Below are positions 878 through 16,381 of a stretch of DNA of 64,000 bases, piece by piece. Within the stretch, counting starts at the first letter, position 1. Every line of letters begins with the position of its first letter. The stretch covers positions 96,001 to 160,000 of the IMG/VR virus record IMGVR_UViG_3300014205_000002; one strand, written 5' to 3'. The position numbers were made by a program, and so were the translations under genes. The notes below the pieces were generated by a model. That model was given only the letters and a program-made list of their open reading frames with translations, had not been told where the DNA came from and did no database searches. Source of the DNA: a virus. Lineage: Duplodnaviria > Caudoviricetes.

Positions 878-1036
878 GTGATTCGCAACGTATCCCGAGA
901 GACCCTGAGCCAGGTGGCCGATGCCGCCGCCAAGATTGTGCTGGGCGTCGCGTCGCTCGTCGCCATCTACCAGGCCACGAAGGAGGGACACCATGCCCCA
1001 GGCACCGACATTGTCCCCGCCGAGGACGCAAGCTGA
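878..1036 (+). CDS. small membrane protein, 52 aa
   Basis: GAGGTG RBS; GTG 878; hydrophobic AAAKIVLGVASLVAIY. Confidence 0.6.
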   Translation: MIRNVSRETLSQVADAAAKIVLGVASLVAIYQATKEGHHAPGTDIVPAEDAS

Positions 1037-3164
1037 GTTCGCCGAGCTCGGGTTTATGCCCGCTCCGGCCGTGAAGTATTTCTACAAGGACCATGAGCAT
1101 GTCACGCCGCCGGTCCAGCACTACATGCTCCAGAGCATGCGGGTGAACGAGCTGCATACGCTCAGGGGCGTGAACAACGTGTTCTTCGTGAAGCACATGG
1201 GTGAGCTCTGGCTGTGGCCGATCCACAGCCGGGGCTTCGAGGCCTTTGACACATTCATTCACAACCAGGTCTGGGAGGGCGAGGTCTTCGCCAAGATCGA
1301 TCGCAAGGTCGCGAAGGCGATGGGCGACGCGCCAGGCGTCTCGGTGATCCAGGCCCAGGCGGATGGCGGATACATCTGTCGGCTCGACCGGTACGGCGAT
1401 CTGTTCGTTTCCGACACCTACGGCGGCTGGGACAAGCCCGGTCGCCCGCGGGGAGAGAAGCCGCAATTCCATGAGAACGGCTTCGCCTGGCGCTCAGACA
1501 TGGTCGCGGCCGCGTGCATGCTCTGTCCGGACAAGAAGCCGACCTGCATGATGCGGGGGGACGGCCGCGGCGATTACAAGTCGACGCCCAAGGACACCCG
1601 CTGGGTGCAGGACACCCAGGGGCGCTTCCACCACGCGCGCATCGAATACGACGGAACGACCAGCACAGGCCGGGTAGTCGAGATGGCGATCGCACCCGCA
1701 TGCGTGAACAAGACCTTCGTGAAGCTCAAGCCGGAGTTCAAGCTCGACGTCGCGGTTTTTGAGGTCGCAGCGCACCACGGCGAGATGGAGCCGCTCTCTC
1801 AGAGGCTCCGTGAGGCGGCCTGCGATAACTGCGCAGGCTGCTCGCACAAGAAGATGATCGGCAAGAGCCGGCTTGAGCGGAACGAGAATTGCGTGATCAG
1901 CACGAAAGAGTTGGTCGCGGACGTACTCGGCTGGGTCGACCAGACGTTCGGTCGCCGCCGACTCGTTAACCTGCTCGCGGCCATGGATTACGAGTACCGT
2001 GTGCGCGGCCAGGGCCGCAAGGCCTACCGTATCTCCGGCTGGAACTGGCGCAAGGGCCTGGTCAAGCTGCGGCACCAGGTCTGGACCGGCGGGTTCCACG
2101 ACGGTCACAAGGAGATTGAGGCGCTGCCAGCGGACATCACGGCGGTCCGGAAAGCCTACACCGATAGCGAAGAGGCGAAGCAGAGCAAGGTGTTACGCCG
2201 TTACCGTCAGCGCACGTTGGATCTGGAATGCGAAACGGATCAGTTTACGATCAGTGATGAAAACTTGGCTGCCGTGGCGCTGACGCTCAACCTGTTCAGC
2301 CACAGTGACAAGCCGACGGTGTTCGTGCCGAAAGACATGTACAAGCTCAAGGGCTTTCGCACCACAATTCACCAGAGTCGCGGTGAAAAACATCACATCG
2401 CCTGTATCTTGATGGATACCACTCGCCGGAACAACGACGAGAAACGGTTCTGGATCATGGGCTGGGAAAATACAATGGAGCAATTCGGCTCTTTTCCGCG
2501 CAGCCGCTACGACGAAGTCAAGAGAGGAGGGCTCCCGCCCTTGCCACCGACACCCAGTGAACCAGACAGCATGGCGATCATGCGAAGCCTTCCGCGCATC
2601 AGCGAGGGTTTTCAGTCGCAACTCCTCAACCGAGCGGTCGAGGATCTCGTCTTCCCGATGTTCGAGGACGACAACCTCAAGACGTACTTCAATCGCCGCT
2701 TTTTCCACGGTGGTGATCTGTGTGACCCGAACGCCGACGCGCTGTATGTGCTCTACAAACCTCGCGTCAACCAACTCCGGCAGCCCATGGACGACATCGC
2801 CCAGGTCCTCGGACACATGACCTTCTACTGCGACGTGCCGGCTGCGGGCGGCTGGTTCTCTGATGACGACGTGCGAGCCATGTTGGTTGCGCACCGGCTG
2901 CGGGTGGTGGACGCACGGGGTGTCGAGATCCCCGATGCGCTCCAGTGGATCGCTCCGATCGGACTGGAAGCCGGCAAGCCCTGGGCGACCGGTCCGTGCG
3001 AGGCTGGCGCTCATGCCTACATCCTGCCCGCAGAGCCTGGCAAGTCCATCCCTGCGCGCCTGGAGGTCGGCTACCGGATGAAGGTCACGAGCGGTGAGGA
3101 TTCCAATAAGCAGGCAGTGCAGAGCCTGCTGTTCGTTCAGCCACTCGCGCCAGGCAGGCCATGA
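993..3164 (+). CDS. large hypothetical protein, 723 aa, with Cys clusters
   Basis: AGGAGG RBS; ATG 993; CMLC and CDNCAGC motifs; no recognised family. Confidence 0.85.
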   Translation: MPQAPTLSPPRTQAEFAELGFMPAPAVKYFYKDHEHVTPPVQHYMLQSMRVNELHTLRGVNNVFFVKHMGELWLWPIHSRGFEAFDTFIHNQVWEGEVFAKIDRKVAKAMGDAPGVSVIQAQADGGYICRLDRYGDLFVSDTYGGWDKPGRPRGEKPQFHENGFAWRSDMVAAACMLCPDKKPTCMMRGDGRGDYKSTPKDTRWVQDTQGRFHHARIEYDGTTSTGRVVEMAIAPACVNKTFVKLKPEFKLDVAVFEVAAHHGEMEPLSQRLREAACDNCAGCSHKKMIGKSRLERNENCVISTKELVADVLGWVDQTFGRRRLVNLLAAMDYEYRVRGQGRKAYRISGWNWRKGLVKLRHQVWTGGFHDGHKEIEALPADITAVRKAYTDSEEAKQSKVLRRYRQRTLDLECETDQFTISDENLAAVALTLNLFSHSDKPTVFVPKDMYKLKGFRTTIHQSRGEKHHIACILMDTTRRNNDEKRFWIMGWENTMEQFGSFPRSRYDEVKRGGLPPLPPTPSEPDSMAIMRSLPRISEGFQSQLLNRAVEDLVFPMFEDDNLKTYFNRRFFHGGDLCDPNADALYVLYKPRVNQLRQPMDDIAQVLGHMTFYCDVPAAGGWFSDDDVRAMLVAHRLRVVDARGVEIPDALQWIAPIGLEAGKPWATGPCEAGAHAYILPAEPGKSIPARLEVGYRMKVTSGEDSNKQAVQSLLFVQPLAPGRP

Positions 3165-3194: not shown

Positions 3195-3215
3195 ACCTGC
3201 CCGAACAGGTATAAT
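3195..3215 (+). promoter_or_regulatory. TATAAT -10 box with abutting inverted repeat
   Basis: TATAAT 3210-3215; ACCTG-N6-CAGGT 3195-3210; no -35 at 16-18 nt spacing. Confidence 0.5.
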
Positions 3216-3328
3216 GAGTCACCCAGCCATCCGAGAGGATGGTCGGGCCTGAAACTTACCGTAGGGCCACGAAGGGGATGCGGCTCCCCTCGACGGCCGT
3301 TCCGTCTTGATGAAAGGACACCACCACC

Positions 3329-4660
3329 ATGGCATACCGTCTCAACCTCGCCATCAAGTTCGCCTTCGCCGCCGACCGCACCGCCGAGCTGGCTCCGGCC
3401 GGCCAGGTGCGCAACTACACGACCGTCATGGGGATTGGCGAGAAGTCGCAGGGCAAGACCGCGACCGTCAAAGCCGCCGCCCAGCAGATCGCCCAGGCCC
3501 TCGGCAAGAAATTCGTCGAGAGCGCCTCACCCGGCCCCGACGAGTTCGGCTTCTGCATCGCGGACCTCTCCGGCGACACCGCAGAGTCGATCGCGGGCCT
3601 GATGGATCGCGAGGAGCGCGAGGGCCGTCGCGTCACCATCTTCGACGCGCACCACTGGTTCCCGCGCCAGGGCACGGGCATCCTCGTGTTCGACGAATGG
3701 AACCGCATCAGCCCGATGGCCGCCCCCGTACTCCAGCAGGCCGCCGACAAGCACCAGCTGGGCCCGCACACCGCGCCCAAGGGCTGGACCTTCGTGTTCA
3801 TCGGTAACCCGCCCGAGGGGGCCTCAGGTAATCAGTACCAGGTCAATGAGGGCTTTGACGACTCGTTCTTCTCGCGCTTCACGGTACTGCCGGTCAGTAT
3901 TGGCAAGGAGGACTTCGTTCGTTATGCCCTGTCACAGGGCTTCCGCAATGAGGTCGTCAACTTCGTTGCGACCGCCGACGATCTGCTGACGGCACCCGAA
4001 GAGGGTCTCAGGCTGGAGAGCAAATTCCCGATCCATCCGAGCAGCCGCGCGCTGGAGACCGTGAACAACCTGCTCGAAGGCTGCGCCTATGCAGAGCGGA
4101 TCTTCAAGCTGCGGCACCTCACCGACCCCAAGAACGAGGATATGTTCCTGCATCTGGTCGGCGGCGCGCTGGGCAAGAAAACGGCGATCGCCATGCACCA
4201 GAGCCTGACGTCCCGCGAGAAGCCGCTGGACGCCGAGGACATCATGGACAACTACTCCTCCAGGGACGCCGAGAGCCAGGAGAGCCCACAGGACAAGGTG
4301 CGCCGCTGGAGCCAGCCGACCAACATGGATCAGGCGCTGCTTGCGACCATCACGAGCGAGCGGGTCGCTCGCTACATCATCGCGATCGATCGCGCCGACC
4401 GCGAGGCCATCAAGCGGATGGAAGCCAAGCTCGGCAACCTCGACGCCTTCCTCGGTGACCTGCGCCATGAGGAGGTGACGATGTTCAATCGCACCATTCA
4501 GCAACACGGCTCGCGCGGCGTGAAGCTGCTCGACATCATTCAGAAGTACACCCAGCGCAACCTGCAAGGCATCGACGCGGGCCGTACGGGCTCGGTCGTG
4601 TCGAATGCGGAGCTGTACGACACCGACGACAGCCAGCCGCTCGCCGCGGCGACGGCCTAG
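3329..4660 (+). CDS. MoxR/AAA_5-like AAA+ ATPase
   Basis: Walker A GEKSQGKT, Walker B ILVFDEWNR, sensor FIGNP, Arg finger SRF; usual partner of DUF2201. Confidence 0.9.
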   Translation: MAYRLNLAIKFAFAADRTAELAPAGQVRNYTTVMGIGEKSQGKTATVKAAAQQIAQALGKKFVESASPGPDEFGFCIADLSGDTAESIAGLMDREEREGRRVTIFDAHHWFPRQGTGILVFDEWNRISPMAAPVLQQAADKHQLGPHTAPKGWTFVFIGNPPEGASGNQYQVNEGFDDSFFSRFTVLPVSIGKEDFVRYALSQGFRNEVVNFVATADDLLTAPEEGLRLESKFPIHPSSRALETVNNLLEGCAYAERIFKLRHLTDPKNEDMFLHLVGGALGKKTAIAMHQSLTSREKPLDAEDIMDNYSSRDAESQESPQDKVRRWSQPTNMDQALLATITSERVARYIIAIDRADREAIKRMEAKLGNLDAFLGDLRHEEVTMFNRTIQQHGSRGVKLLDIIQKYTQRNLQGIDAGRTGSVVSNAELYDTDDSQPLAAATA

Positions 4661-4663
4661 CCC

Positions 4664-5236
4664 GTGCAGACCACTGTCGACGTCGAGGCGCTGCTCGCCC
4701 GCGCGAACGAGCGTGGCGACGCGACCTCGCTGATCATCGACCTCAAGCTCGTTTCGGCGGAGAAGATACGGATCTTCGCCGCCTCACTCGCGCGCGACGC
4801 ACTCAAGGCGGTTGAGAACGTGGATCTTCGCGCCGTCCGCTGCGTGCGCGCGGCGGAGGCCTACGCCCTGGGCACACTGTCAGCCAACACCTACGAGCAC
4901 ACCCGGCAGATATACAGTCATGCGCACATCGCCTGGACGGAGGTCCAGGCGGTGGTTCAGCAGAAGCCGGTCGAGCCGCCGCACATGCTTTGGGCCCTGC
5001 GCGACGCACGAATGGCCGCGTTCATCCTGCTCAACGATGTCTTTGCGGCCGACGTCTGTCCCGACGTCTGGTATGCGGCGGGATGCGTGATTCCGCTCTA
5101 CGCGACGGCGATGGCGCGCTCTCGACTAATCCCGGAGAAAACGGCGCGCTGGGTGGCGGCCCATCACCAGGCGATCGACAAGGTCGAACACGATCTGATT
5201 GCGCTCGTTCGCAGCGAAAAGGAGTCCGGATGCTGA
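4664..5236 (+). CDS. Imm5-like alpha-helical protein
   Basis: RIFAASLARDAL...DLRAVRCVRAAEAYALG resembles the Imm5-like FAxxCAxxxL...DxRxxxAIxxAxxxAxG pattern. Confidence 0.55.
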   Translation: MQTTVDVEALLARANERGDATSLIIDLKLVSAEKIRIFAASLARDALKAVENVDLRAVRCVRAAEAYALGTLSANTYEHTRQIYSHAHIAWTEVQAVVQQKPVEPPHMLWALRDARMAAFILLNDVFAADVCPDVWYAAGCVIPLYATAMARSRLIPEKTARWVAAHHQAIDKVEHDLIALVRSEKESGC

Positions 5237-6720
5237 CTCAACTCAAGAGCCCCAAGCTGTTCAAGCGGCTTGAGACCACCATGACTTATCTCATGTACGA
5301 CAAGAGCGAGATGGGACGCCTCTACAATGGCATCCTGAGGCGCTCAAAGGTCATCATCGTGGACAGCATGCCGAGCCTGTCGCGGGCGGCTGTGTGCATG
5401 GAGGGGATCAAGCCCACCTTCATCTTCACGCCCGAGTACTTCGAGGAGCCGCTCCAGGTTCAGATCGACATCCTGTGTCATGAGATGTACCACCTAATCT
5501 TGAAGCACCCGATCCTTTATCGCGATCTGGAGGGCCCCAAGCTCGTGTTCAGGACGGGGCTACCGAGGCCGCAGCACCAGCAGATCGTGACGGTGATCAA
5601 CCTTGCCGCCGATGCGGTCGTGAACCAGCGGCTGCGGCCCGAGCAGGTCCAGGCGGGCTGGGTGCTGCCCGAGCGCTACGGCCTGGAACCGCACCGCGAC
5701 ACGACCTACTACCATGCGAAGTTCATGGAGATGTTCCCAGAGACCCCGCCCGAAAGCGGCTTCGGCGAGGGCGACGCGGACATGATGCTGATGCCGCAGG
5801 CTGGCGAGCCGGATGGCGAGCCGAGCGAGGACGCCACGGAGCTTGAGGTCGTGGTGCCGGCGGCGGAACCAGAAGGCGAGACGGAACCCATCCTGCGCGC
5901 CGAGCGCGCCATTCAGGGTTCCGCCGAGCAGGGCCCCATGCGCCAGCTTCATGAAGGCGTCCAGCAGGACTACGGCATCGCACCCGACGGCCAACTCGCG
6001 AATCCGCATCTGATGTGGAAGATCGGGCCTGAGGGCATCGGCAACGGCATCACCGACCCCGGCCTCGCCGAGGAAGCGATCCGCCAGGTGATCGCCAAGG
6101 CTGCGCTCGCGTTGACACCCCAGCAGCGCGGCACGCTGCCGGGCTGGCTCCAGCAGGAGATCGAGAGCGCGCTCAAGCCCTCGCGGGTGCCGTGGTTCTA
6201 CACGCTCAGGCGTTGCTTCGCGCGGCTCGGGGCGATGACCATGCGCAAGACCGTCGTGCGACCGAACCGCCACACCGGCGGCCGACCGGGTGTGCGGCCC
6301 GTACTCAAGCGCAAGATCATTGTCGCGATCGACGAGAGTTGCTCGGTCTCGGACTCGTGGGTCCAGCAGTTCAAGAGCGAGATCCACCACGCCTGGACGA
6401 TGGGCGTCGACGTCTGGGTGATCACGCACAACAGCGTCGTGACGAGCATGTATCGCTACAACGGCAAGAATCTGGCCTGGGGCCGCAAGGGTGGCGGCAC
6501 CGATCACACGGAAGTGATCGATCGCGCCAATGCGGAGAAGGCCGACTTGCTCGTGTGCATGACCGACGGCTACACCGGCGTCGCCGAGGGCACCCGCCCG
6601 AAGCACGGCATGAAGGTCGCCTGGGTCACGACGCCAGACGGCGTGAACCCGGTGGATCAGGACTACTGCGACTTCGGGTTCCATGTGCCCATCTACGAGC
6701 TGGAGGAGGAGGCCGCTTGA
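5230..6720 (+). CDS. DUF2201 metallopeptidase-VWA protein
   Basis: HEMYH zincin motif, NLAADAVVN, acidic linker, MIDAS AIDESCSVS, GGGTD, MTDG. Confidence 0.92.
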   Translation: MLTQLKSPKLFKRLETTMTYLMYDKSEMGRLYNGILRRSKVIIVDSMPSLSRAAVCMEGIKPTFIFTPEYFEEPLQVQIDILCHEMYHLILKHPILYRDLEGPKLVFRTGLPRPQHQQIVTVINLAADAVVNQRLRPEQVQAGWVLPERYGLEPHRDTTYYHAKFMEMFPETPPESGFGEGDADMMLMPQAGEPDGEPSEDATELEVVVPAAEPEGETEPILRAERAIQGSAEQGPMRQLHEGVQQDYGIAPDGQLANPHLMWKIGPEGIGNGITDPGLAEEAIRQVIAKAALALTPQQRGTLPGWLQQEIESALKPSRVPWFYTLRRCFARLGAMTMRKTVVRPNRHTGGRPGVRPVLKRKIIVAIDESCSVSDSWVQQFKSEIHHAWTMGVDVWVITHNSVVTSMYRYNGKNLAWGRKGGGTDHTEVIDRANAEKADLLVCMTDGYTGVAEGTRPKHGMKVAWVTTPDGVNPVDQDYCDFGFHVPIYELEEEAA

Positions 6721-8183
6721 GCTTCAATACCCGCACCGAGAGCGCTGCGGCCGCAGCGCTGCTCGATCAGGTCCACGGATTGAGTCCCGACGATCAGGCC
6801 AACTTCATCGCGCAGCTGCTCGCAGACTACCTTGAGGTCGACGGACTCGGCCGCACCATCGCCGCCCTGGACGAACTCGTGGCCGTCCTGCCGGCCGGGC
6901 CCGGTATCGACGCGCTCATGAAGCTCCAGCTCCGGTGGGAGGAGACCGAGGGCGACAAGAACAGCTACGGCTTTGCGACCTGGGGTTACGCGGTGAGTAA
7001 CCCAGGCCTGTCGGACGACTTCATAAACCTGATCGTCGAGCGTCGCCCCAGCGTGCTTGTGCCGGGGAGCACCTATGCGCGCACCATTGCGGCTAAACTC
7101 ACGCCCGCGCAGTTCCTGCGGGTGGTCGAGACGGAAGGGGCCAGCGAGGGCGTGGCGAAGGCCATCCTCGATCGTTTCAAGGACGTGGTGACGCCTCAGG
7201 CCGTCTGGACCTTCGCCCAGAAGTGGGCCGAGAACCCCAAGCACAGCGCGCCCGTCAGCTTCCACGCCAATGCCATGAACGACGCGATCGACAACGTCCT
7301 GCGCATGGCGATCGCGGATCGGCAGACGCCGCCGGCGATCGTTGGGGCGCTCTATGCTGCATGGGTACTGGTTCGACCGGAACTCGCCTTGCACCCGAAC
7401 CTGCCCCAGAAAGACTTCGACGCGGCCGTCGAGGTACTGGTGACGCACCCATGGGGCGAGTGGCCGAAAGAGTGGGCGGGCGTCGCCTGCGAGCTCGTGC
7501 GCTCGCCCCGGCTGCCCGCCTCCGTAGTGAACTACCTGCTCGACGAGCCGCGGAGTTGGCGTTACCTCGGCTCCAACCCGGCGTTGCCGGCGAACATCCG
7601 CACGATCATCATCGAGCAGGGTAGCCCAGCCGACTACCTCGGCCTGATCGAAAACCGCGCGATCGACCCCGCCGAGTTCAAGGCCTGGTTTGAGCGGGCC
7701 GTGGATCTGGGGACCGGGGTCGAACTCAACGACTCCAACCTCCTGAACCACCCATGCATGACCGGCGCGCAGCTCGCGGTGTTCGCCCATTACATCCGCA
7801 TCTGGTCGCCCGCCAAGTTCAGCGCCCATCTACGCAGCTCCGCCGCATGCGATAAATCGCTGGCGGCGGCCATTCGCGGGGCTCGGAGTTGCAATATAAC
7901 CAGCATCGTGAGCACGCTCACGAAGTTTCTCGCCAAACCCCATGGCCGTGAGCGGGCGGGTGTCCAGACTCTGGAGGCGTGTCTCGGCTGCGTAAAGTCC
8001 GCTGGCAGCAACGACAACGGCCTGCGCGCCGCGGTGGCCCGGCATCCGGCGGTGGACGCAGGGATCCTCAAGCGGCTCGCCAAGATCCAGAATCGCGACG
8101 TGCGTGCAGCCGTGGGGGCTGCGCGTGTGCGACTCAACCAAAAGGAGCCCGCGAATGACTCAGCAGAAGCTGCCTCTGCCTGA
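6717..8183 (+). CDS. LRV/HEAT-like helical-repeat protein, paralog 1
   Basis: TTG overlapping upstream TGA, GGAGG RBS; repeats LALHPNLP, LVRSPRLP, LGSNPALP, LLNHPCMT, VARHPAVD. Confidence 0.8.
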   Translation: MSFNTRTESAAAAALLDQVHGLSPDDQANFIAQLLADYLEVDGLGRTIAALDELVAVLPAGPGIDALMKLQLRWEETEGDKNSYGFATWGYAVSNPGLSDDFINLIVERRPSVLVPGSTYARTIAAKLTPAQFLRVVETEGASEGVAKAILDRFKDVVTPQAVWTFAQKWAENPKHSAPVSFHANAMNDAIDNVLRMAIADRQTPPAIVGALYAAWVLVRPELALHPNLPQKDFDAAVEVLVTHPWGEWPKEWAGVACELVRSPRLPASVVNYLLDEPRSWRYLGSNPALPANIRTIIIEQGSPADYLGLIENRAIDPAEFKAWFERAVDLGTGVELNDSNLLNHPCMTGAQLAVFAHYIRIWSPAKFSAHLRSSAACDKSLAAAIRGARSCNITSIVSTLTKFLAKPHGRERAGVQTLEACLGCVKSAGSNDNGLRAAVARHPAVDAGILKRLAKIQNRDVRAAVGAARVRLNQKEPANDSAEAASA

Positions 8184-9609
8184 CACCGTGGAGACGGTGC
8201 GGGCCCAGGCCGAGAAGCTTTCCAGCGCCGACCAGGCGGATTTGCTCGCGCAGATGCTGGGCGGCTTCTTGCGCCACGACATCGACCGCGTGCTGGTGCC
8301 GGCGGCCGACAAGGCGGCGACGCGCAATGGCCTCAGGCTCCTGCGCGCGCTGGTCGATCGCCAGGCCCGGCCGGCCGGTCCCGGCGGCCCATTGAAGCCG
8401 CCCGAGGCCATGCGGCATGTGGTACTGGACATCGCCCAGAACCCGATGGCGGACGAGGAGCTGGTGACCTGGGCTATTCGGTACGGCGTCAGCGAGCTGC
8501 TCAAGATCACCGACAAGGATCGCAATAAGGCCTACCGGCCAGACGAGGTGCGCGAGCCCTGGTTCACCGACGAACGGGTGGCGCTGATCATCGAGACCCA
8601 TATGCCGATCGGCGCGCTGATGGACTGGATGGGGCACTACATGCTGGATCTCCCGGTGCCTTTGCGCGAGGCCTATCTCGCCAAGCTCGTGGTGGCCGAG
8701 CGCGAACTGGGATTGCCCGGGCGGCTGCGGGACAGCCGCCGCGAGCAGATCGTGCATCTGGCCTTCAAGACCTATGAACTCTCGGTGGCGTCGGTGCTGG
8801 CGCTGTGGGAGGTTTACCCGATGCACCGCGACATCCTGTTGTTTCACCGGGGCATGCCCGAGGAGGTGGCGCTCGCGAAGATGGGTGAGTTCTGTGAGGA
8901 CGCGCCCATCAAGGGCAAGCCCCACGAGACCGTCACCAACGACCGCCGGCTGTTTGAGGCGATGTTCACCTGGCCGAAGCTGCCGACGAAGTTCATGTAC
9001 TTCTTTATGGATGATCCCGAACTCCGGCCGCTGATCGCCGACAACCCCAAGCTACCGGCCGACCTCGCGTGCATGCTCGCAGGTTTCCGCGAGTGGCCGG
9101 TGGTCGAGAAACTACTCAGGCATCAGACCCTGCCTCAGCAAACCTGGCAGGAGGTCTTTGAGGAGGCCTTCCGTATCAACATGACGGAAGCCATCAAGTG
9201 CGGTCGCGCAAACCCCCTGGCGAGCCCTGAGCAGCTCTCAGAGATGTGGCTGAGTGACATCGGCGACGCGGCGCGGACGTTGGAGTACCTCGCCCACCCA
9301 GCCTGCTCGTCCAAGCTCTACTGGCAGATCGTGGCTTCCAGTCGTCGCAAGGACTGGTGGGGCCGGGTGCTGGCGGTGTTACTAGAGGACGAAAGCATGT
9401 CCGAGGCGAAGCTGGTCAAGCTCTGCGGATTCAAGCAGGGCGACGACAAGTGGATCGACAAGTTCCCCGCCTCGGCCTGCACCAAGCTCGCCCAGCACCC
9501 CCATGCGCCGCTTTGGGCGCTGGAGATAGTATCGGAGTATGCGGGCCCGCAGGATGCCCGGGCCGCCGATGACAACATTGAGAAGCGGAAAGCGAGAATG
9601 ACAGCATGA
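8155..9609 (+). CDS. LRV/HEAT-like helical-repeat protein, paralog 2
   Basis: AAGGAG RBS; IAQNPMAD, IADNPKLP, LAHPACS, LAQHPHAP. Confidence 0.82.
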   Translation: MTQQKLPLPDTVETVRAQAEKLSSADQADLLAQMLGGFLRHDIDRVLVPAADKAATRNGLRLLRALVDRQARPAGPGGPLKPPEAMRHVVLDIAQNPMADEELVTWAIRYGVSELLKITDKDRNKAYRPDEVREPWFTDERVALIIETHMPIGALMDWMGHYMLDLPVPLREAYLAKLVVAERELGLPGRLRDSRREQIVHLAFKTYELSVASVLALWEVYPMHRDILLFHRGMPEEVALAKMGEFCEDAPIKGKPHETVTNDRRLFEAMFTWPKLPTKFMYFFMDDPELRPLIADNPKLPADLACMLAGFREWPVVEKLLRHQTLPQQTWQEVFEEAFRINMTEAIKCGRANPLASPEQLSEMWLSDIGDAARTLEYLAHPACSSKLYWQIVASSRRKDWWGRVLAVLLEDESMSEAKLVKLCGFKQGDDKWIDKFPASACTKLAQHPHAPLWALEIVSEYAGPQDARAADDNIEKRKARMTA

Positions 9610-11126
9610 CGACCTTCAACGACGTCTACGACGGCTACACCCATCTGCCCGAGCGATCGCGCCTGGAATTCCTGCGGCAGGCCATGATCATGGGCTCGGA
9701 GATCACGAACGGCGATCTGATCGAGATGATCAAGCCGCTCGCCTGCGCCGAGAACCACTGGTGCGATCTGTTTGAGCTGTGCGTGCAGCTGATCCAGTTG
9801 GAGTTCGGCTATAGCAATGAGGCCTTGGGTCTGGAACTCAACGGTTTCGCGCGCAACGTCAACCTGCCCGAGCATGTGGCGGATCTGATGGTTACGGCCG
9901 GCTGTCCGGACTTCTGGGACGGATCGCTGAGTCACCTCTCGCCCATGTGGACCCTGAGCCGAATCGACACGATGATCCGGAGCCAATTCCCTGGCTCGGT
10001 CGTCTGCCATTGGGTGGTGATGAACCGCCATGCGATCAGCCAGGAGCAGTTTGAGTGCTTCTTTGCGCGGGCGCTGGAAACCCACGCCGACATGGCTGAC
10101 ATGGTCCCCCGCTTTCCTTGGGCGGCCGAGGAGGCGCATCTGGTCCAAGGCGGCCTTTGGCGCAAGAGTGACACCGGCATGGACGCCCTGTTCAGCATGG
10201 TCGCACAGGATCACCATCCAGTCTCGCCGGCGACGCTCCGGCGCTTCTACAGCCTCGGCTGGCAGCGTTATGGTGCGATGCTAGTGGCGCACCCTGGCCT
10301 GCCTGAGGAGGTCTTCGACTACGAGCACAGCGTCTGCGTAAACGGCACGCCCGAATGGGCCAGGCTGCACGACAGCGAGGGCCGGCTCCGAAAGCTGGTC
10401 GCCAACCCAAGCTGCCCGCCGCGCTACCTCTACTACAGCCTAGAGAGCCGGCGCTTGTGGCAGGCGATGGCCCTGAACCCCCGGCTGCCGGAGGATATCC
10501 GCAGCCTGATGTTGGCCGACGGCGACGAAGGCGTGCAGGAGGGCATGCTCCATAACGAGAGCCTGCCTGCGGAGGCGTGGAACGCAATCGCGAGCAACCT
10601 CAGCCTGGCGTATGCCGAGACCTTCTTGGTCAACCTCGCGAACCGTCAATTCAATGACTGCCTGCTGCGAGACAAGCGTTGGTCTAAAGCCTCGCTGATG
10701 CTGGCTTTCGTTGCCGTTCTCAACTTGGAGAAGTCGGGACATCGCTCACTTGTGAGCAGCAGCCAGAACTGGGTCGCGCGTTTCGCCCAGGCGGGCCAGC
10801 CGCTGGGCGACGTGGTCGTGGAGATGGTTGAGGCAATCGCCTTGGAGCGTTGGGCTTCCAATGCCTACCGCGACATCCTGCGCTGGTCGCCAAACACGTC
10901 TCCGGCGACGCTCTGGGCCATGCTTGAAAACAGCACCGAGGCGGACACGGGGCTCGCGAGCGATCTCGTCACCCACCCAGCGGCCAACATCAAGCTACTC
11001 AAGGCGATCGCGGAGAAGTGGCTGGGCCATGACCTCTACATCGTCCAGCACGCCACCAAGCGCATCAACGAACTTTACAAGGAGGCTACAGTCCATGGCA
11101 CTCTCACCCCTGGAACTGATCCATGA
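9606..11126 (+). CDS. LRV/HEAT-like helical-repeat protein, paralog 3
   Basis: ATGA overlap; LVAHPGLP, LVANPSCP, MALNPRLP, LVTHPAAN. Confidence 0.82.
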   Translation: MTTFNDVYDGYTHLPERSRLEFLRQAMIMGSEITNGDLIEMIKPLACAENHWCDLFELCVQLIQLEFGYSNEALGLELNGFARNVNLPEHVADLMVTAGCPDFWDGSLSHLSPMWTLSRIDTMIRSQFPGSVVCHWVVMNRHAISQEQFECFFARALETHADMADMVPRFPWAAEEAHLVQGGLWRKSDTGMDALFSMVAQDHHPVSPATLRRFYSLGWQRYGAMLVAHPGLPEEVFDYEHSVCVNGTPEWARLHDSEGRLRKLVANPSCPPRYLYYSLESRRLWQAMALNPRLPEDIRSLMLADGDEGVQEGMLHNESLPAEAWNAIASNLSLAYAETFLVNLANRQFNDCLLRDKRWSKASLMLAFVAVLNLEKSGHRSLVSSSQNWVARFAQAGQPLGDVVVEMVEAIALERWASNAYRDILRWSPNTSPATLWAMLENSTEADTGLASDLVTHPAANIKLLKAIAEKWLGHDLYIVQHATKRINELYKEATVHGTLTPGTDP

Positions 11127-12573
11127 GCAGATCGACGAGCTGTCGGACACCGATCGCGGGGAGTTGGCCGCCCAGCTGACCTGGCGCTTCCTCAAGGGCG
11201 AGGACAGCTCCCAGGACGGCTTCCTCGGCGATCTCGCGAACCGCATCGGCCAGGACATGATCGACGCACCGCACAAGCTCGCCTTCGTGACGGAATTGCT
11301 CAACCTGTCTGGCTCCTACAACGGGTACCACTCGGGTGCTTCGGACATGGCCAAGCGGATCCTGCAACGCGACAACGTGCCAACTCACACCGTCGACGTC
11401 ATGATCACGGGCCATCTCGACGCGGTGCTGCTGGAGCCTATTTCCTCGCAATACAAGTACCAGCTGACCCAGCCACAGGTCGACAGGATCGCGGGCCAGT
11501 ACAGCGCCTCGGATCGAGCGATCGACTTCGTGAAGCGCGAGGCTGCGCGCATCACGCCGGCGCGCTACGACGAGTTCCTCGCACGGGCGATGAAGGAGCA
11601 CCTCTTCTTCGACGATGAAGACGGGCGCTACCGGCCACGCAAGATCGACGACATCATGGGGCCCGTCGTTCACGGCAAGCAGCCGGGGAACGCGGAGTTG
11701 ATTGCCCAGGCTGTCGGACGCTCGGACCAGGTGGCCCGCAGCCTCGCCAAACATGGGCTACTTCCGCTCGCGTTCATCGAGGAGAACATGGCGCGCTTCG
11801 CGGAGTTGGAAGGTCCGCTGCAAACCTGGGACAGCGAGTTGCGCGAAGGCCTGCTCGCCAACCCGAGCACACCAGAGAAGTACCTCTACTTCTACGCAGA
11901 GGACGAGGAGCGCCGATCCTGGTTTAGCCTGGCCGAAAACCCCAAGCTGCCCATGGATCTCGCGAACCTGCTGGTGAGCCAGGGCAACGATGGCGTGGCG
12001 TTGGCGTTGGCGACGAACAAGTCGCTCGACGCGAAGCTCTGGAACGAGGCCGTTTGCCACCTCGCACGCTCGGAGCGCATGCGCGACGGAAAGTCCTCGG
12101 ACTACATCCGCGACCCCCGGGCGACGGTGGACACGCTGGTTTACCTGTGCGAGCGGATGGCGGCGTGGCGCGAAGCCAACCAGGGCGGCTACCAGCATGT
12201 GGCCTGGTTTCCGGCCTTCATGCGCACGGGGATGCCGGGTGGCGTGGTGGCACGCTTCATCACCATCGTCGCCGCTTACAAGTGGGGCAAGGACGCCATG
12301 CTCGCCGCGCTGGAGGCAGCCGCCGGCGAGCGCTTCGAGATCACCGCGGCAGCCCTGCGGATGATGAGTACGCACGCCAAGGGCGGCAGCAAGGCGGCCA
12401 TGACCATGCGGCTGCTGCTCGCCGGGCAAGCAACCACTCCAGACGATATACTGGTCACGCTGGCCGGCTCGAACGACGAGGCGATCGCCGGCGCGGCCAA
12501 GTCCCAGATGATGCGCCGCGGAGCCAGCGACGTCATCAGCGCCTATTACCAGAAGGAGTCCAAGAAAAAATGA
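11095..12573 (+). CDS. LRV/HEAT-like helical-repeat protein, paralog 4
   Basis: AGGAGG RBS; LLANPSTP, LAENPKLP, LATNKSLD. Confidence 0.82.
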   Translation: MALSPLELIHEQIDELSDTDRGELAAQLTWRFLKGEDSSQDGFLGDLANRIGQDMIDAPHKLAFVTELLNLSGSYNGYHSGASDMAKRILQRDNVPTHTVDVMITGHLDAVLLEPISSQYKYQLTQPQVDRIAGQYSASDRAIDFVKREAARITPARYDEFLARAMKEHLFFDDEDGRYRPRKIDDIMGPVVHGKQPGNAELIAQAVGRSDQVARSLAKHGLLPLAFIEENMARFAELEGPLQTWDSELREGLLANPSTPEKYLYFYAEDEERRSWFSLAENPKLPMDLANLLVSQGNDGVALALATNKSLDAKLWNEAVCHLARSERMRDGKSSDYIRDPRATVDTLVYLCERMAAWREANQGGYQHVAWFPAFMRTGMPGGVVARFITIVAAYKWGKDAMLAALEAAAGERFEITAAALRMMSTHAKGGSKAAMTMRLLLAGQATTPDDILVTLAGSNDEAIAGAAKSQMMRRGASDVISAYYQKESKKK

Positions 12574-13343
12574 CCGTACGCAGCTACAACAAGCAGGCAA
12601 TGATCGCCGAACTCCGCGCCCACGCGCTGACCTCAGTGACGCCCGCCCGCCTCGGCCATGAGGGCGCTCGAACGCCGGGTGCGAAGGGCGTCTTGCTGAT
12701 GCTCAACCACCTGGAGAAGAACACGGACTTCTTCGACGCGCCCGCCAGCTCCCGCCGGCACTACCACAAGTCCGAGGTCGGCGGGCTCGCCCAGCACTCG
12801 TGGAACGTGATCAAGCTGATGCAGCGCTTCATCGTCGCCACCTTCAACGACACGGCGCAGGCCGAGCTGTACTGGTCGGCCACGCCGACGGCGGCAGCTC
12901 TCGACACCAAGGCGCTCTTGGAAAGTTGTTTCGTAATTGGCTTGTGCCATGACCTCAATAAGACCACGGTCTGGGGTCATCGGCAGTACGTCGACAACAT
13001 GCTCGTCAAGGGCCGCTCTGAGGCCGAGCCGTGGAAGAAGAACGCCCAGCGCGTGAAGCTCGGCTCGACCGACCAGGTGCTGCTCGCGTCGGAGTTCATC
13101 GACCTCAAGGCCGACGAGGTGCAGGGCATCCGCTACATCGAGGGCATGTACGATCGCAGCTTCATGGCCGACCTCGGTGCCAATTTCGAGTTCCTCACGC
13201 TGGCCGCTCACCACGCGGACATCATGGCCTCGCACGTCGTCGAGTCCAACGTGCCGTGGGATCGCGATCACCGCACCTGGGGCGCTCAGTTCGGGGCCTA
13301 CGCCAGTGTGCCCCAGACGGCCGAGGAGGCTGCCATCCTCTGA
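12570..13343 (+). CDS. HD-domain phosphohydrolase (YhaM-like phage family)
   Basis: FFDAPASSRRHYH...GGLAQHS, LCHDLNK, HHAD. Confidence 0.88.
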   Translation: MTVRSYNKQAMIAELRAHALTSVTPARLGHEGARTPGAKGVLLMLNHLEKNTDFFDAPASSRRHYHKSEVGGLAQHSWNVIKLMQRFIVATFNDTAQAELYWSATPTAAALDTKALLESCFVIGLCHDLNKTTVWGHRQYVDNMLVKGRSEAEPWKKNAQRVKLGSTDQVLLASEFIDLKADEVQGIRYIEGMYDRSFMADLGANFEFLTLAAHHADIMASHVVESNVPWDRDHRTWGAQFGAYASVPQTAEEAAIL

Positions 13344-13354
13344 AAGGAGGACCC

Positions 13355-14149
13355 GTGTCCACATTGAACGAATCGAAGGCCGCGCTGGTGAAGCGCGGCC
13401 TTCCTGCTGAGGCCGTCGCGATCCTGGCGGCCCAGCTCCCAGCGGGCGATCTCTCGTACAAACCGAAGAAGGTCATCAAGTCCACGACGGGCCAGGGCTT
13501 CGTGGCGCTCGCGATCGCCTACGTCGATCGCGACGCGGTCTGCAAGCGCCTGCACGAGAGCGGTCTCGCCTGGAGCTACAAGCCCACCCTGATCGAGCGC
13601 ACCAACGTCTACGCGTGCATCCTGGGTACAATCCTCGTGACGCTGGAAAGCGGCGTCGTGGTCGAGTTCTCCGACTACGGCGAGGCCGAGAACGGCCGCG
13701 GGTATGCGGATCGCGAACTCGTCAAGGAGGCGAACACCGATGCGATCAAGCGCGCCGGTCGTATGCTGCTGATCGGGGCGGAGATGTCCAAGGTCAAGAA
13801 GGTCTGGAAGCCCTGTCTCGTCGAGAACGAGCGGGATACCAAGCTGAAATTCCAGGCCTGGGTGGAGGAGGTCGATCCCGAGCCTCCGGCCATACCGCCG
13901 GTGACCAAGCCGATCACGCCGGCCGTGGTCGCCGTGATCAATACGAAGCCGCCACCTCCGCATGTGGAGCGCATCGAGAAGCTGATCGAGAAGCATGCGA
14001 TCAAGCGGTCGGAGCTGATCCTCTACATCCAGAACACGTTCAAGGTCAACGACTTCGCCCTGCTGACGGAGGCCAACGCCCAGGTCGTGGTCGACACCAT
14101 CGTGCGCAAGTACGAGAGCCCCAAGGAGGTCCCGATTGGACGCAGTTAG
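13355..14149 (+). CDS. Rad52/Rad22 (Sak)-family ssDNA annealing protein
   Basis: AYVDRDAVCKRL...W; KEANTDAIKRAGRMLLIG; AAGGAGG RBS with GTG start. Confidence 0.85.
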   Translation: MSTLNESKAALVKRGLPAEAVAILAAQLPAGDLSYKPKKVIKSTTGQGFVALAIAYVDRDAVCKRLHESGLAWSYKPTLIERTNVYACILGTILVTLESGVVVEFSDYGEAENGRGYADRELVKEANTDAIKRAGRMLLIGAEMSKVKKVWKPCLVENERDTKLKFQAWVEEVDPEPPAIPPVTKPITPAVVAVINTKPPPPHVERIEKLIEKHAIKRSELILYIQNTFKVNDFALLTEANAQVVVDTIVRKYESPKEVPIGRS

Positions 14150-14567
14150 CTACACCCCGCAAGACAACGGCCTCACGCCCGGCGGCACCCCGCCGCGCGA
14201 GGAAGCGCGCACCTTCACCGCGGGCTTCACGCCCCCGTGGATCATCTACGGGGCGATGCCCGAGACCTACCAGATGAAGATCGTCGGCGAGGAACTGGAC
14301 GCCATCTTCGAGGCCGGCGACTTCATCGGCGACTACGGCCTACTCAAGGGCCGCTACAACTGGGGCGACGCCAACGGTGTCCACGTCAAGCGCGAGGACA
14401 TGATGGTGCTGCTGCTCGCGTTGCAGCTCTATGAGCAGTTCGGCTGGAACGCGCAGTACAGCGCCCCGAGCGACCAGGAAGAAGAGGATCGCGGAGCGGT
14501 GCTCAGGGAGGCCGCCAGCAGCCTGCGCTCGGCCATCCTGGAGACCCTCGGCATTGACGAGGTCTGA
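14136..14567 (+). CDS. hypothetical protein
   Basis: AAGGAGG RBS with TTG start; coding-like bias. Confidence 0.75.
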   Translation: MDAVSYTPQDNGLTPGGTPPREEARTFTAGFTPPWIIYGAMPETYQMKIVGEELDAIFEAGDFIGDYGLLKGRYNWGDANGVHVKREDMMVLLLALQLYEQFGWNAQYSAPSDQEEEDRGAVLREAASSLRSAILETLGIDEV

Positions 14568-14568
14568 G

Positions 14569-15051
14569 ATGGGCGAGGTCGACCTCACGTGGGCCTTTGA
14601 CCTCGTCGCGCCGATCTATTGCACGGATTGGTCGAATGGCGTTCGCAACATAGCGGAGGCCCGGCTCGCGCTCACCCGGCTCAAGCTCGCGGATCGGCTG
14701 CGGCTGTCCCTGCTGCTGCCGCATCTCGGCATCGCGCCGGGTGACTTCACCCAGCTGCTGGTAGATCTGACGGACGGCCTGGAGTTGCCCGGAACCAAGG
14801 CCCTGCGCTACGTGGCCCACACCGTCTACGACGTCGCCTTCGTGGAACTCGTGAGTCTCTGGGGCGAGGACTTCCTGGTGCTCGACGAAAGCAAGTGCGG
14901 ATTCATCCGCAAGGACGACCCTGACCGTGGTCGAGTCTTCTCAACCGATCTCGCCACGGGCTGGACGGCGTTCATGAGCGCACGGAATCTACACCGCCGG
15001 ATCGACCTAATTGCGCGCGACCTTGTGCCTCATGGGGCTGGCCCACTGTGA
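14569..15051 (+). CDS. hypothetical protein, tandem family A copy 1
   Basis: Aligns by eye with the next ORF (DLVAPI/DLIGPI; ARLALTRLKLADRLRL/ARVALVKLALADRQRL). Confidence 0.8.
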   Translation: MGEVDLTWAFDLVAPIYCTDWSNGVRNIAEARLALTRLKLADRLRLSLLLPHLGIAPGDFTQLLVDLTDGLELPGTKALRYVAHTVYDVAFVELVSLWGEDFLVLDESKCGFIRKDDPDRGRVFSTDLATGWTAFMSARNLHRRIDLIARDLVPHGAGPL

Positions 15052-15530
15052 CGCCGGTGGTGACGCCCGAGGCCCTGGAGTTGCTTGATCTGATCGGCCC
15101 GATCGACAACTACGCGAATGTGAGCCTGCGCTTTGAGAGGCCGGCCCGCGTGGCGTTGGTGAAACTCGCGCTCGCCGACAGGCAGCGCCTGCTCGCGGGG
15201 ACAGCCATCTCGGGCAGCGTGCATGTCGGATCCATGCTGCTGGAACTCGTGACGGACGGCGCGTCGCTCGACGACGCGGTGTGGGGTGCCGCGATCAGCG
15301 ACATCTACCAGGCTGTCTTCCCGAATCTCGTTTTGGGGATGGCGAAAGGCAAGCTCATGATCCACCCCCAGGCTCGCCACATATTTCTCACCGGCGAACC
15401 GGACGCCGTGCTGTTTCAAGCCCGCAGTGACCCATGGCCCAGCTTCTCCAGCGCGGAGGAGCTGGCTCGCGAGATCGATAGCGTTCTCGCCGTAGGCCAT
15501 GACCACCCCTCGATCTGGAGGACCTCATGA
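15048..15530 (+). CDS. hypothetical protein, tandem family A copy 2
   Basis: GTGA overlap; paralog of 14569-15051. Confidence 0.8.
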   Translation: MTPVVTPEALELLDLIGPIDNYANVSLRFERPARVALVKLALADRQRLLAGTAISGSVHVGSMLLELVTDGASLDDAVWGAAISDIYQAVFPNLVLGMAKGKLMIHPQARHIFLTGEPDAVLFQARSDPWPSFSSAEELAREIDSVLAVGHDHPSIWRTS

Positions 15531-16381
15531 TGATGACCGAAACAAAACTGGCGTTCAAGCCTTTCCCCGCCGGCGTCACGACCTTCTGGCTGGAGGACGT
15601 GGCGGCCATCCGGATCAGAGTTCGGGATCAGCGCACCTACACCTACAAGGGGCGCTACGGCAACCTGGAGACGGACACGCCCTGGCGGCCCGAGGCCGCG
15701 CGCTCGTTCTTCGCGCATCTGGCCCACATCAAGGGCAAGCTCGTGAAGTGCAAGCGTGACACGACGACCAGCATCACGATCGTGCTCAAGGACGGCAGGG
15801 AGTTGCCGAACCTGGAGTTCTGGGAGCACGAACTCCAGGCATTCTGGCAGGGACAGCCTCAGCCGCCAGGCTTCGGTAGCAAGGCCGCCTGCTACAACGG
15901 CTGGCAGGTCGACTACGTGCTCATGAGCGAGGAGCGGGGCCAGATGGCGCGCCTGCGGGTGACGATGCCGCGGGAGATCCTCCAGGCGGCGATCGCCCAG
16001 GTCCCCAAGATCGCCCACTCCACGACCAGCGGCACCTACCGGCTTGCCGAGCGGCATGTGAAGTACTGGAAGCCCTCGGTGCGCGTGGAGATGCCGCCCG
16101 AGGCGCTCGCCATCTACAAGGCGAACTGGAACGTCGCCAAGGCTGGCGAGACGAACCTGCGCGAGCAGATGTGCCGGCTCGTGAATATCGCCCGCAACGG
16201 CTCGCGCAACCAACGTCAGCCTGGTCGTCTACGGCTCTACGCGGAGAGCCCGCGGAGCTTCGGCTGGTCAGCCCAGACCGGCACCGGCAAGCCGAGCATG
16301 CATGGCGGCCTGATCTTCCATGGCGATCGCGGACCTAACGACGAGCGCCTGGAGACCGGCTACTACTCGATCCACACCTGA
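15527..16381 (+). CDS. protein with C-terminal DUF4120-like domain
   Basis: SF.W...GGLIFHG...YSIHT C-terminal motif. Confidence 0.65.
   Translation: MMMTETKLAFKPFPAGVTTFWLEDVAAIRIRVRDQRTYTYKGRYGNLETDTPWRPEAARSFFAHLAHIKGKLVKCKRDTTTSITIVLKDGRELPNLEFWEHELQAFWQGQPQPPGFGSKAACYNGWQVDYVLMSEERGQMARLRVTMPREILQAAIAQVPKIAHSTTSGTYRLAERHVKYWKPSVRVEMPPEALAIYKANWNVAKAGETNLREQMCRLVNIARNGSRNQRQPGRLRLYAESPRSFGWSAQTGTGKPSMHGGLIFHGDRGPNDERLETGYYSIHT

Follow-up and report, generated by a model that had tools for sequence, protein, structure and literature searches.

Several pairs of a MoxR-type AAA+ ATPase and a VWA-domain protein serve a dedicated client: CbbQO acts with Rubisco, NorQD with NOR and ATV p618/p892 with a tail protein. 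For pairs of the DUF2201 type we know of no target, and few gene pairs that lack an explanation are as common as those of AAA+ and VWA proteins in large phages, N4-like phages, archaeal viruses and plasmids. A MoxR-vWA pair with an N-terminal metallopeptidase has been described in group 2.2 jumbo phages, and a role in virion assembly was proposed for it (Iyer, Anantharaman, Krishnan, Burroughs and Aravind, 2021; PMC7824862). Furthermore, vWA-MoxR ternary conflict systems often carry TPR or HEAT repeats (Kaur, Burroughs, Iyer and Aravind, 2020; PMC7159879), and AAA/vWA pairs of archaeal viruses lie among replication or accessory genes (PMC7911831). Here, a gene block containing such a pair was analyzed in a 64,000-nucleotide (nt) stretch, the window, of the virus record IMGVR_UViG_3300014205_000002; the window comprises bases 96001-160000 of a single 208,264-bp contig with 64% G+C. 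The block encodes a AAA+ ATPase, a zincin-VWA (DUF2201) protein and four paralogous LRV-type solenoid proteins, and we propose that it and the same three parts in cyanobacterial chromosomes probably form one undescribed protein-remodelling machine. Its seven co-directional genes were found where an initial annotation, made from the sequence alone, had placed them (3329-12573), and an HD gene follows (lengths in amino acids, aa):

3329..4660, plus strand: divergent MoxR/AAA_5-like AAA+ ATPase, 443 aa (Walker A/B motifs, phrog_1297, structural neighbours in the Atlas)
4664..5236, plus strand: helical protein, 190 aa, accessory insert (gene missing in the relative L001; no family match)
5230..6720, plus strand: zincin-like metallopeptidase with VWA domain (DUF2201_N and DUF2201), 496 aa (Pfam, phrog_1314, motifs)
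6717..8183, plus strand: LRV-type alpha-solenoid paralog D, 488 aa, TTG start in a TTGA overlap
8155..9609, plus strand: LRV-type alpha-solenoid paralog E, 484 aa
9606..11126, plus strand: LRV-type alpha-solenoid paralog F, 506 aa (structure model, fold neighbours)
11095..12573, plus strand: LRV-type alpha-solenoid paralog G, 492 aa
12570..13343, plus strand: HD-type phosphohydrolase, 257 aa (phrog_5889, phrog_28876; ATGA overlap with paralog G)

The pair of the group 2.2 jumbo phages resembles the one in the window in that both are carried by jumbo phages and the zincin-VWA gene comes after that of the AAA+ ATPase; however, linked helical-repeat paralogs are not reported there (PMC7824862), whereas here the pair lies among replication and recombination genes together with four LRV paralogs. 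CbbQ/CbbO, NorQ/NorD, RavA/ViaA and ATV p618/p892 likewise combine a AAA+ ring, a VWA adaptor with a MIDAS (metal ion-dependent adhesion site) and a dedicated partner, but no zincin domain is present in these VWA proteins, and the clients of the pairs are enzymes already known or a tail protein. The vWA-MoxR ternary systems share the MoxR and vWA core, a third component and repeats with the present block, which differs from them in that the peptidase is N-terminal to the vWA domain, no effector is fused C-terminally, the repeats have genes of their own and a phage is the carrier. Pfam, NCBIfam and PADLOC, libraries in which VMAP-C may not be represented, gave no VMAP, iSTAND, FtsH or beta-propeller domain for the block, and its NCBIfam and PADLOC scans returned nothing useful. 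Among pairs of the PHROG 1297/1314 type, those of Moorella phage MTATph1 (CDS0181/0180) and the N4-like Erwinia phage MIF8 (gp7/gp4) are just 22-31% identical to that of the window; HExxH and MIDAS motifs and nearby LRV genes are common to MTATph1 and the window, but in MTATph1 the LRV genes are scattered and not arrayed. The cyanobacterial loci have the same three parts, tandem LRV paralogs, tight packing on one strand and intact HExxH and MIDAS motifs, and differ in that shorter, canonical LRV proteins (362-409 aa) are encoded between the AAA and DUF2201 genes on a host chromosome. All three components adjacent on one strand, with at least two LRV paralogs, were observed in the window (3329-12573) and in Crocosphaera watsonii (locus L030, 5329-11230). 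The phage form stands out by four ancient, roughly 490-aa and highly diverged solenoids encoded after the VWA gene. That no such system had been described, as first supposed, does not hold for the pair, which was known from jumbo phages; no paper connecting LRV proteins with MoxR/vWA pairs was found.

The evidence that carries the association comes from outside the phage lineage. With the DUF2201 protein of the Synechocystis plasmid pSYSA as probe, five genome loci from Crocosphaera and Microcystaceae were found, and in all five of them tandem LRV genes directly adjoin the DUF2201 gene on the same strand. The AAA gene is also visible in C. watsonii WH 8501 and in loci L027 and L028, while L026 and L029 are short contigs. 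In WH 8501 (L030), the AAA gene (5329-6354) is followed by three LRV genes (6391-9894; Pfam LRV E-values of 7e-44, 9e-47 and 1e-33) and by a DUF2201_N/DUF2201 gene (10001-11230) with the motifs HELLH and DSSGS, and the flanking genes look ordinary and housekeeping-type, not defence-related. Thus, the order AAA, DUF2201, LRV array in the phage stands against AAA, LRV array, DUF2201 in cyanobacteria. Moreover, another AAA-LRV array contains P0048, which ranks among the best short bacterial hits that a profile built from the phage paralogs gave. Moorella phage MTATph1, which shares just about seven proteins with the window phage, was the sole LRV tblastn match among 50,697 phage records and at the same time the best phage match of the window DUF2201 protein. 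Its AAA_5 ATPase and DUF2201 genes are adjacent, and together with at least two LRV genes recognized by Pfam LRV (1e-11 and 4e-10) and three weaker profile hits, they lie within 12 kb on one strand among replication genes. Adjacency that persists despite changed order in unrelated replicons is a classical sign of a working link, and judged by this genomic pattern the LRV proteins are quite likely to be functionally linked to the AAA/DUF2201 pair. The AAA/zincin-VWA pair and the repeat paralogs therefore probably belong together, as had been assumed, being adjacent in the phage lineage and in five of five cyanobacterial loci and within 12 kb in MTATph1. A repeat partner that recurs across lineages offers a first handle on the targets of the pair and can be used as bait; and since the same parts occur in culturable cyanobacteria and on pSYSA, a plasmid of a model strain, the question can be tested by genetics without the phage, which is uncultured.

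Beside these loci, two Cytophagales plasmids have a conserved operon that encodes DUF2201, AAA_5 and then a classical LRR protein of 927-937 aa (Fulvitalea L016, 6788-12217; Chondrinema L017, 6371-13044, the latter with an additional BRCT-LRR protein), and this LRR protein is a predicted second kind of repeat partner for the pair. In MTATph1, a further gene annotated as 'ATPase', CDS0115, and the hypothetical gene CDS0114 (493 aa) overlap each other (OR602862.1, 112731-115309), and the two may be a second AAA/partner pair. A distant IMG/VR locus, L015 (IMGVR_UViG_3300031578_009193, 13111-16269), has two genes between AAA and DUF2201; an RVT_1 reverse transcriptase gene (2e-16) lies just downstream, a hint that the pair has a diversity-generating retroelement next to it.

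Several observations weigh against the proposed association. The cyanobacterial loci belong to one lineage and count as one observation, and the phage paralogs are only distantly related to the cyanobacterial LRV proteins (hidden Markov model E-value of about 1e-12). On pSYSA, 4.2 kb separate the MoxR/VWA-like pair from an LRV gene (638 aa) on the opposite strand. No LRV gene was detected near the pair in MIF8 (12 kb examined), in L015 or in three plasmids, so that LRV is not an obligate partner and would be an optional third component; three of four LRV genes sampled on plasmids had no AAA or DUF2201 gene within 5 kb. Among the relatives of the window phage, contig ZSB2pvws (Logan SRR22388175) has other genes, about 4.3 kb in all, between DUF2201 and its five paralogs, and in L004 small genes occupy more than 4 kb upstream of the array. 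Arrays apart from the pair in relatives, the outcome that the initial annotation had regarded as adverse, thus occur in ZSB2pvws, and other phages have the pair without LRV genes, whereas linkage holds in cyanobacteria and MTATph1. Adjacency inside the phage lineage is itself weak evidence, because synteny there reaches far past the block and genes overlap as a rule.

Within this lineage, the 43-kb contig L001, the closest relative, has the same gene order as the window: AAA (74% identity), DUF2201 (67%), the paralogs D'-G' (41-44%) and HD (60%), followed by a Rad52-like gene. The paralog array directly follows DUF2201 in the window, in L001 and in L003 (DUF2201 and two paralogs), while a 123-aa helix-turn-helix gene lies between DUF2201 and two paralogs in L002. 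In L005 and L006 the order is paralog or paralogs, a gene of roughly 150 aa and HD; L014 is similar, its downstream genes being matched by size only. The distant relative contigs have 2-5 paralog copies, always upstream of HD and Rad52-like genes. After the array, HD is followed by a Rad52/ERF-type annealing gene in the window (12570-14149), in L001 (11604-13157) and likewise in L002, L005 and L006, and an ERF gene lies a few genes past the array of ZSB2pvws. The HD and Rad52/ERF block is a stable landmark of this phage lineage. Megablast and tblastn searches of 50,697 phage records with the block and paralog E found no relatives, scans of IMG/VR and JGI metagenomes with DUF2201, paralog and AAA patterns gave nothing but L015, and word-index protein searches returned just proteins of the window, L001 and ZSB2pvws and one Myxococcota fragment.

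The AAA+ ATPase named by the initial annotation was confirmed. Its Walker A (GEKSQGKT) and Walker B (ILVFDEWNR) motifs are intact and invariant in three relatives, and the protein matches phrog_1297 (ATPase) with an E-value of 2e-22. Pfam AAA_5 and AAA_3 gave no hit, AAA_22 and AAA_16 were reached just at E-values of 0.1-0.7, and sequence and profile searches of the PDB, which includes solved MoxR structures, found no relative. The model of the protein in the Atlas (predicted local distance difference test, pLDDT, of 0.71) is closest to phage and bacterial clusters in which AAA_5 accounts for 63-99% of the members (template modelling, TM, scores of 0.62-0.68 by query), and two of these clusters bear the name MoxR; our own model, made from the single sequence without an alignment, had a pLDDT of 36. 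Identity falls from 74% in L001 to 52% on ZSB2pvws. The VWA/MIDAS partner follows the AAA gene after a 55-nt gap in L001 and after the 190-aa insert in the window.

The 496-aa partner exceeds the Pfam cut-offs for both DUF2201_N (PF13203, 37.4 vs. 23.2 bits) and DUF2201 (PF09967, 40.2 vs. 26.4 bits) and matches phrog_1314 (4e-31). Its HExxH motif reads HEMYH and its MIDAS motifs are DESCS, GGTDH and TDG, so the description as an HExxH and MIDAS-VWA protein is upheld. Three relatives, L001 and L002 among them, keep HExxH as well as the MIDAS residues DxSxS, T and D, while the acidic linker between the zincin and VWA domains is variable among relatives.

The four paralogs of about 490 aa had been called LRV/HEAT-like, which is borne out by a solenoid model and by profile-level similarity to LRV but not directly by Pfam, where LRV repeats are represented by PF01816 and PF25591: all four have LRV_2 hits of 17.8-19.9 bits, below the cut-off of 27 bits. 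The LRV assignment therefore rests on a search of 1.8 billion proteins with a profile of eight paralogs, which gave 1275 matches with E-values down to 2e-40; about a dozen full-length phage relatives of 460-550 aa were at the top, with mainly long bacterial repeat proteins below. All of the eight long bacterial matches that were scanned carry Pfam LRV (E-values from 4e-31 down to 1e-113), and the architectures seen include one Trypsin-NACHT-LRV and one WGR-LRV protein. The AlphaFold2 model of paralog F, built from an eight-sequence alignment, is an all-helical solenoid of 32 helices (pLDDT 82.6). Its nearest Atlas clusters, some of them viral, are 87-100% LRV (TM 0.40-0.47), and in the PDB it matches HEAT, ARM and TOG folds of a generic kind (Z-scores up to 9.2), without a functional hint. 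D-G are 16-25% identical to one another, with mutual matches of 1e-5 to 1e-17, and no fifth copy was found in the 208-kb genome. Each has an orthologue in L001 in the same order (D 41%, E 42%, F 44% and G 42% identity). In a tree built from 21 members of the family, each window copy pairs with one L001 copy (support 100/100), copies of one phage never cluster together and G is sister to F (89/83); hence the duplications are old and each copy has been retained. A DNA-mimic function of the paralogs was considered and rejected (isoelectric points of 5.3-6.2, modest net charge), and no head-loading tag was seen by eye at the paralog N-termini. Complex prediction of the DUF2201 protein with paralog D, run without controls, gave a score of 0.01, which speaks neither for nor against binding.

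We propose that the AAA+ ring would supply ATP-driven force and that the DUF2201 protein would be its VWA co-chaperone, whose MIDAS site would dock or grip a partner that the intact zincin domain could then cut. The four LRV solenoids would be the third component, which holds or selects the proteins the pair acts on, and all genes lie behind one promoter-like site in a block that also holds the HD and Rad52-like genes. What the sequences show is the domains, that their motifs are intact, that the paralogs are old and that the neighbourhood recurs; physical contact between the parts, the adaptor role and the targets of the machine are what we infer beyond this. A three-part AAA+/zincin-VWA/LRV remodelling machine with the solenoids as binding platforms has, in our estimate, slightly less than an even chance of being correct.

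Alternatively, the LRV paralogs could be clients, and a larger cage or helical scaffold would be made of them as the pair folds, assembles or trims them. The neighbourhood evidence from cyanobacteria and MTATph1 fits this explanation just as it fits a machine with solenoid platforms, known MoxR-VWA pairs serve one dedicated client that is often encoded by a neighbouring gene (PMC7911831; PMC9976466), and translational coupling and a fixed gene order suit the subunits of one assembly. However, a copy number of 2-5 among relatives fits a fixed hetero-assembly poorly, the paralogs show neither a cleavage-site mark nor any sign of an enzyme that needs a cofactor, and solenoids are more often binders than cargo; we consider the paralogs unlikely to be clients. 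It is also rather improbable that pair and paralogs have no joint function in the phage, the gene order being merely inherited and the paralogs alone binding host proteins in takeover or anti-defence. Synteny that runs well past the block through HD, Rad52-like and further genes speaks for this, as do the arrays detached from DUF2201 in ZSB2pvws and L004, the faster divergence of the paralogs (41-44% identity to L001) than of AAA (74%), DUF2201 (67%) and HD (60%), and the occurrence of bacterial LRV repeats on a Trypsin-NACHT protein; but the AAA-LRV-DUF2201 order in cyanobacteria and the co-occurrence in MTATph1 would be left unexplained.

A narrower form of the three-part machine, put forward in the initial annotation, has the solenoids as specificity subunits of an ATP-driven unfoldase-protease encoded by the phage, each delivering a distinct host protein, for example a defence protein, to the AAA+/zincin-VWA pair for destruction. 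If true, they would be a bacterial-virus counterpart of the repeat adaptors with which eukaryotic viruses redirect host degradation machinery, and in the cyanobacterial chromosomal copies one would see this programmable machine in its cellular form. The housekeeping-type surroundings of the cyanobacterial copies temper a reading in terms of conflict, and we regard this role as decidedly unlikely. Finally, that the pair is a virion-assembly chaperone which processes structural proteins on solenoid scaffolds is very improbable: although virion assembly was proposed for the pair of group 2.2 jumbo phages (PMC7824862) and a MoxR-like ATPase was found in purified Staphylococcus jumbo phage particles, a finding flagged as uncertain by its authors (PMC10638138), here and in Moorella, N4-like and halovirus genomes the neighbours of the pair are replication, recombination or accessory genes, not head or tail genes, and the cyanobacterial chromosomal copies have no virion to build.

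As regards the layout of the locus, the tight coupling noted initially is real, but the block does not end at 12573. From AAA+ to HD, a 3-nt gap is followed by overlaps of 7, 4, 29, 4, 32 and 4 nt, and as the HD start at 12570 lies inside an ATGA overlap, the coupled block runs past that point. Start and stop codons that overlap in this way suggest that the block proteins are made in roughly matched amounts. G+C content at third codon positions is 0.80-0.88 across all nine genes between 921 and 13343, so that these look as real genes of this genome should.

The 190-aa gene had been labelled Imm5-like, a label that was not sustained: neither PF14423 nor PF21805 matched even at E-values up to 10, and the gene is missing from the close relative L001, where the AAA and DUF2201 genes are just 55 nt apart. 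No family was found for the protein in Pfam (E-values up to 10), PHROGs, NCBIfam or PADLOC, and no structural match in the Atlas reached a TM score of 0.5 by query; Imm5_like appeared among the Atlas feature scores at ranks 13-15 (0.87-0.88, the best being 0.88 at rank 13), which is a lead only. Since L001 lacks it, the gene is taken as an accessory insert outside the module. At the position of this insert, ZSB2pvws has a 495-aa gene of unknown family between AAA and DUF2201 (9327-10814 of the locus).

Upstream of the block, three further features were recorded:

921-3164, plus strand: orphan, 747 aa
3211..3216, plus strand: TATAAT, -10-like box before the block, read directly
3222..3298, plus strand: 5' leader with two hairpins (about 3222-3247 and 3264-3298), stems kept in L001

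The gap of 164 nt ahead of the AAA gene contains both the TATAAT box, present as first annotated, and the two hairpins. In L001 the aligned counterpart of the box is TACAAT, and a consensus scan ahead of the block found no full sigma-70 promoter. Sequence and stems of the AAA-gene leader (3217-3330) are both conserved in L001, and the 17 predicted pairs are kept in the two sequences with zero compensatory changes, for which reason support for the hairpins is weak; they may serve as an RNA element in regulation or as a site of processing. The 747-aa orphan just upstream of the block has 15 Cys, an isoelectric point of 8.8 and 44% identity to its L001 homologue, which is separated from the AAA gene of L001 by a 248-aa orphan; searches of Pfam, PHROGs, NCBIfam and PADLOC with the 747-aa protein gave no match. 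Genome-wide, at 64% G+C, TATAAT occurs 15 times on the plus strand and 10 times on the minus strand. Five of the plus-strand copies, at genome positions 15997, 47352, 48631, 51547 and 199386, share the context CC-TATAAT-ACC, and these sites could be a phage promoter class.

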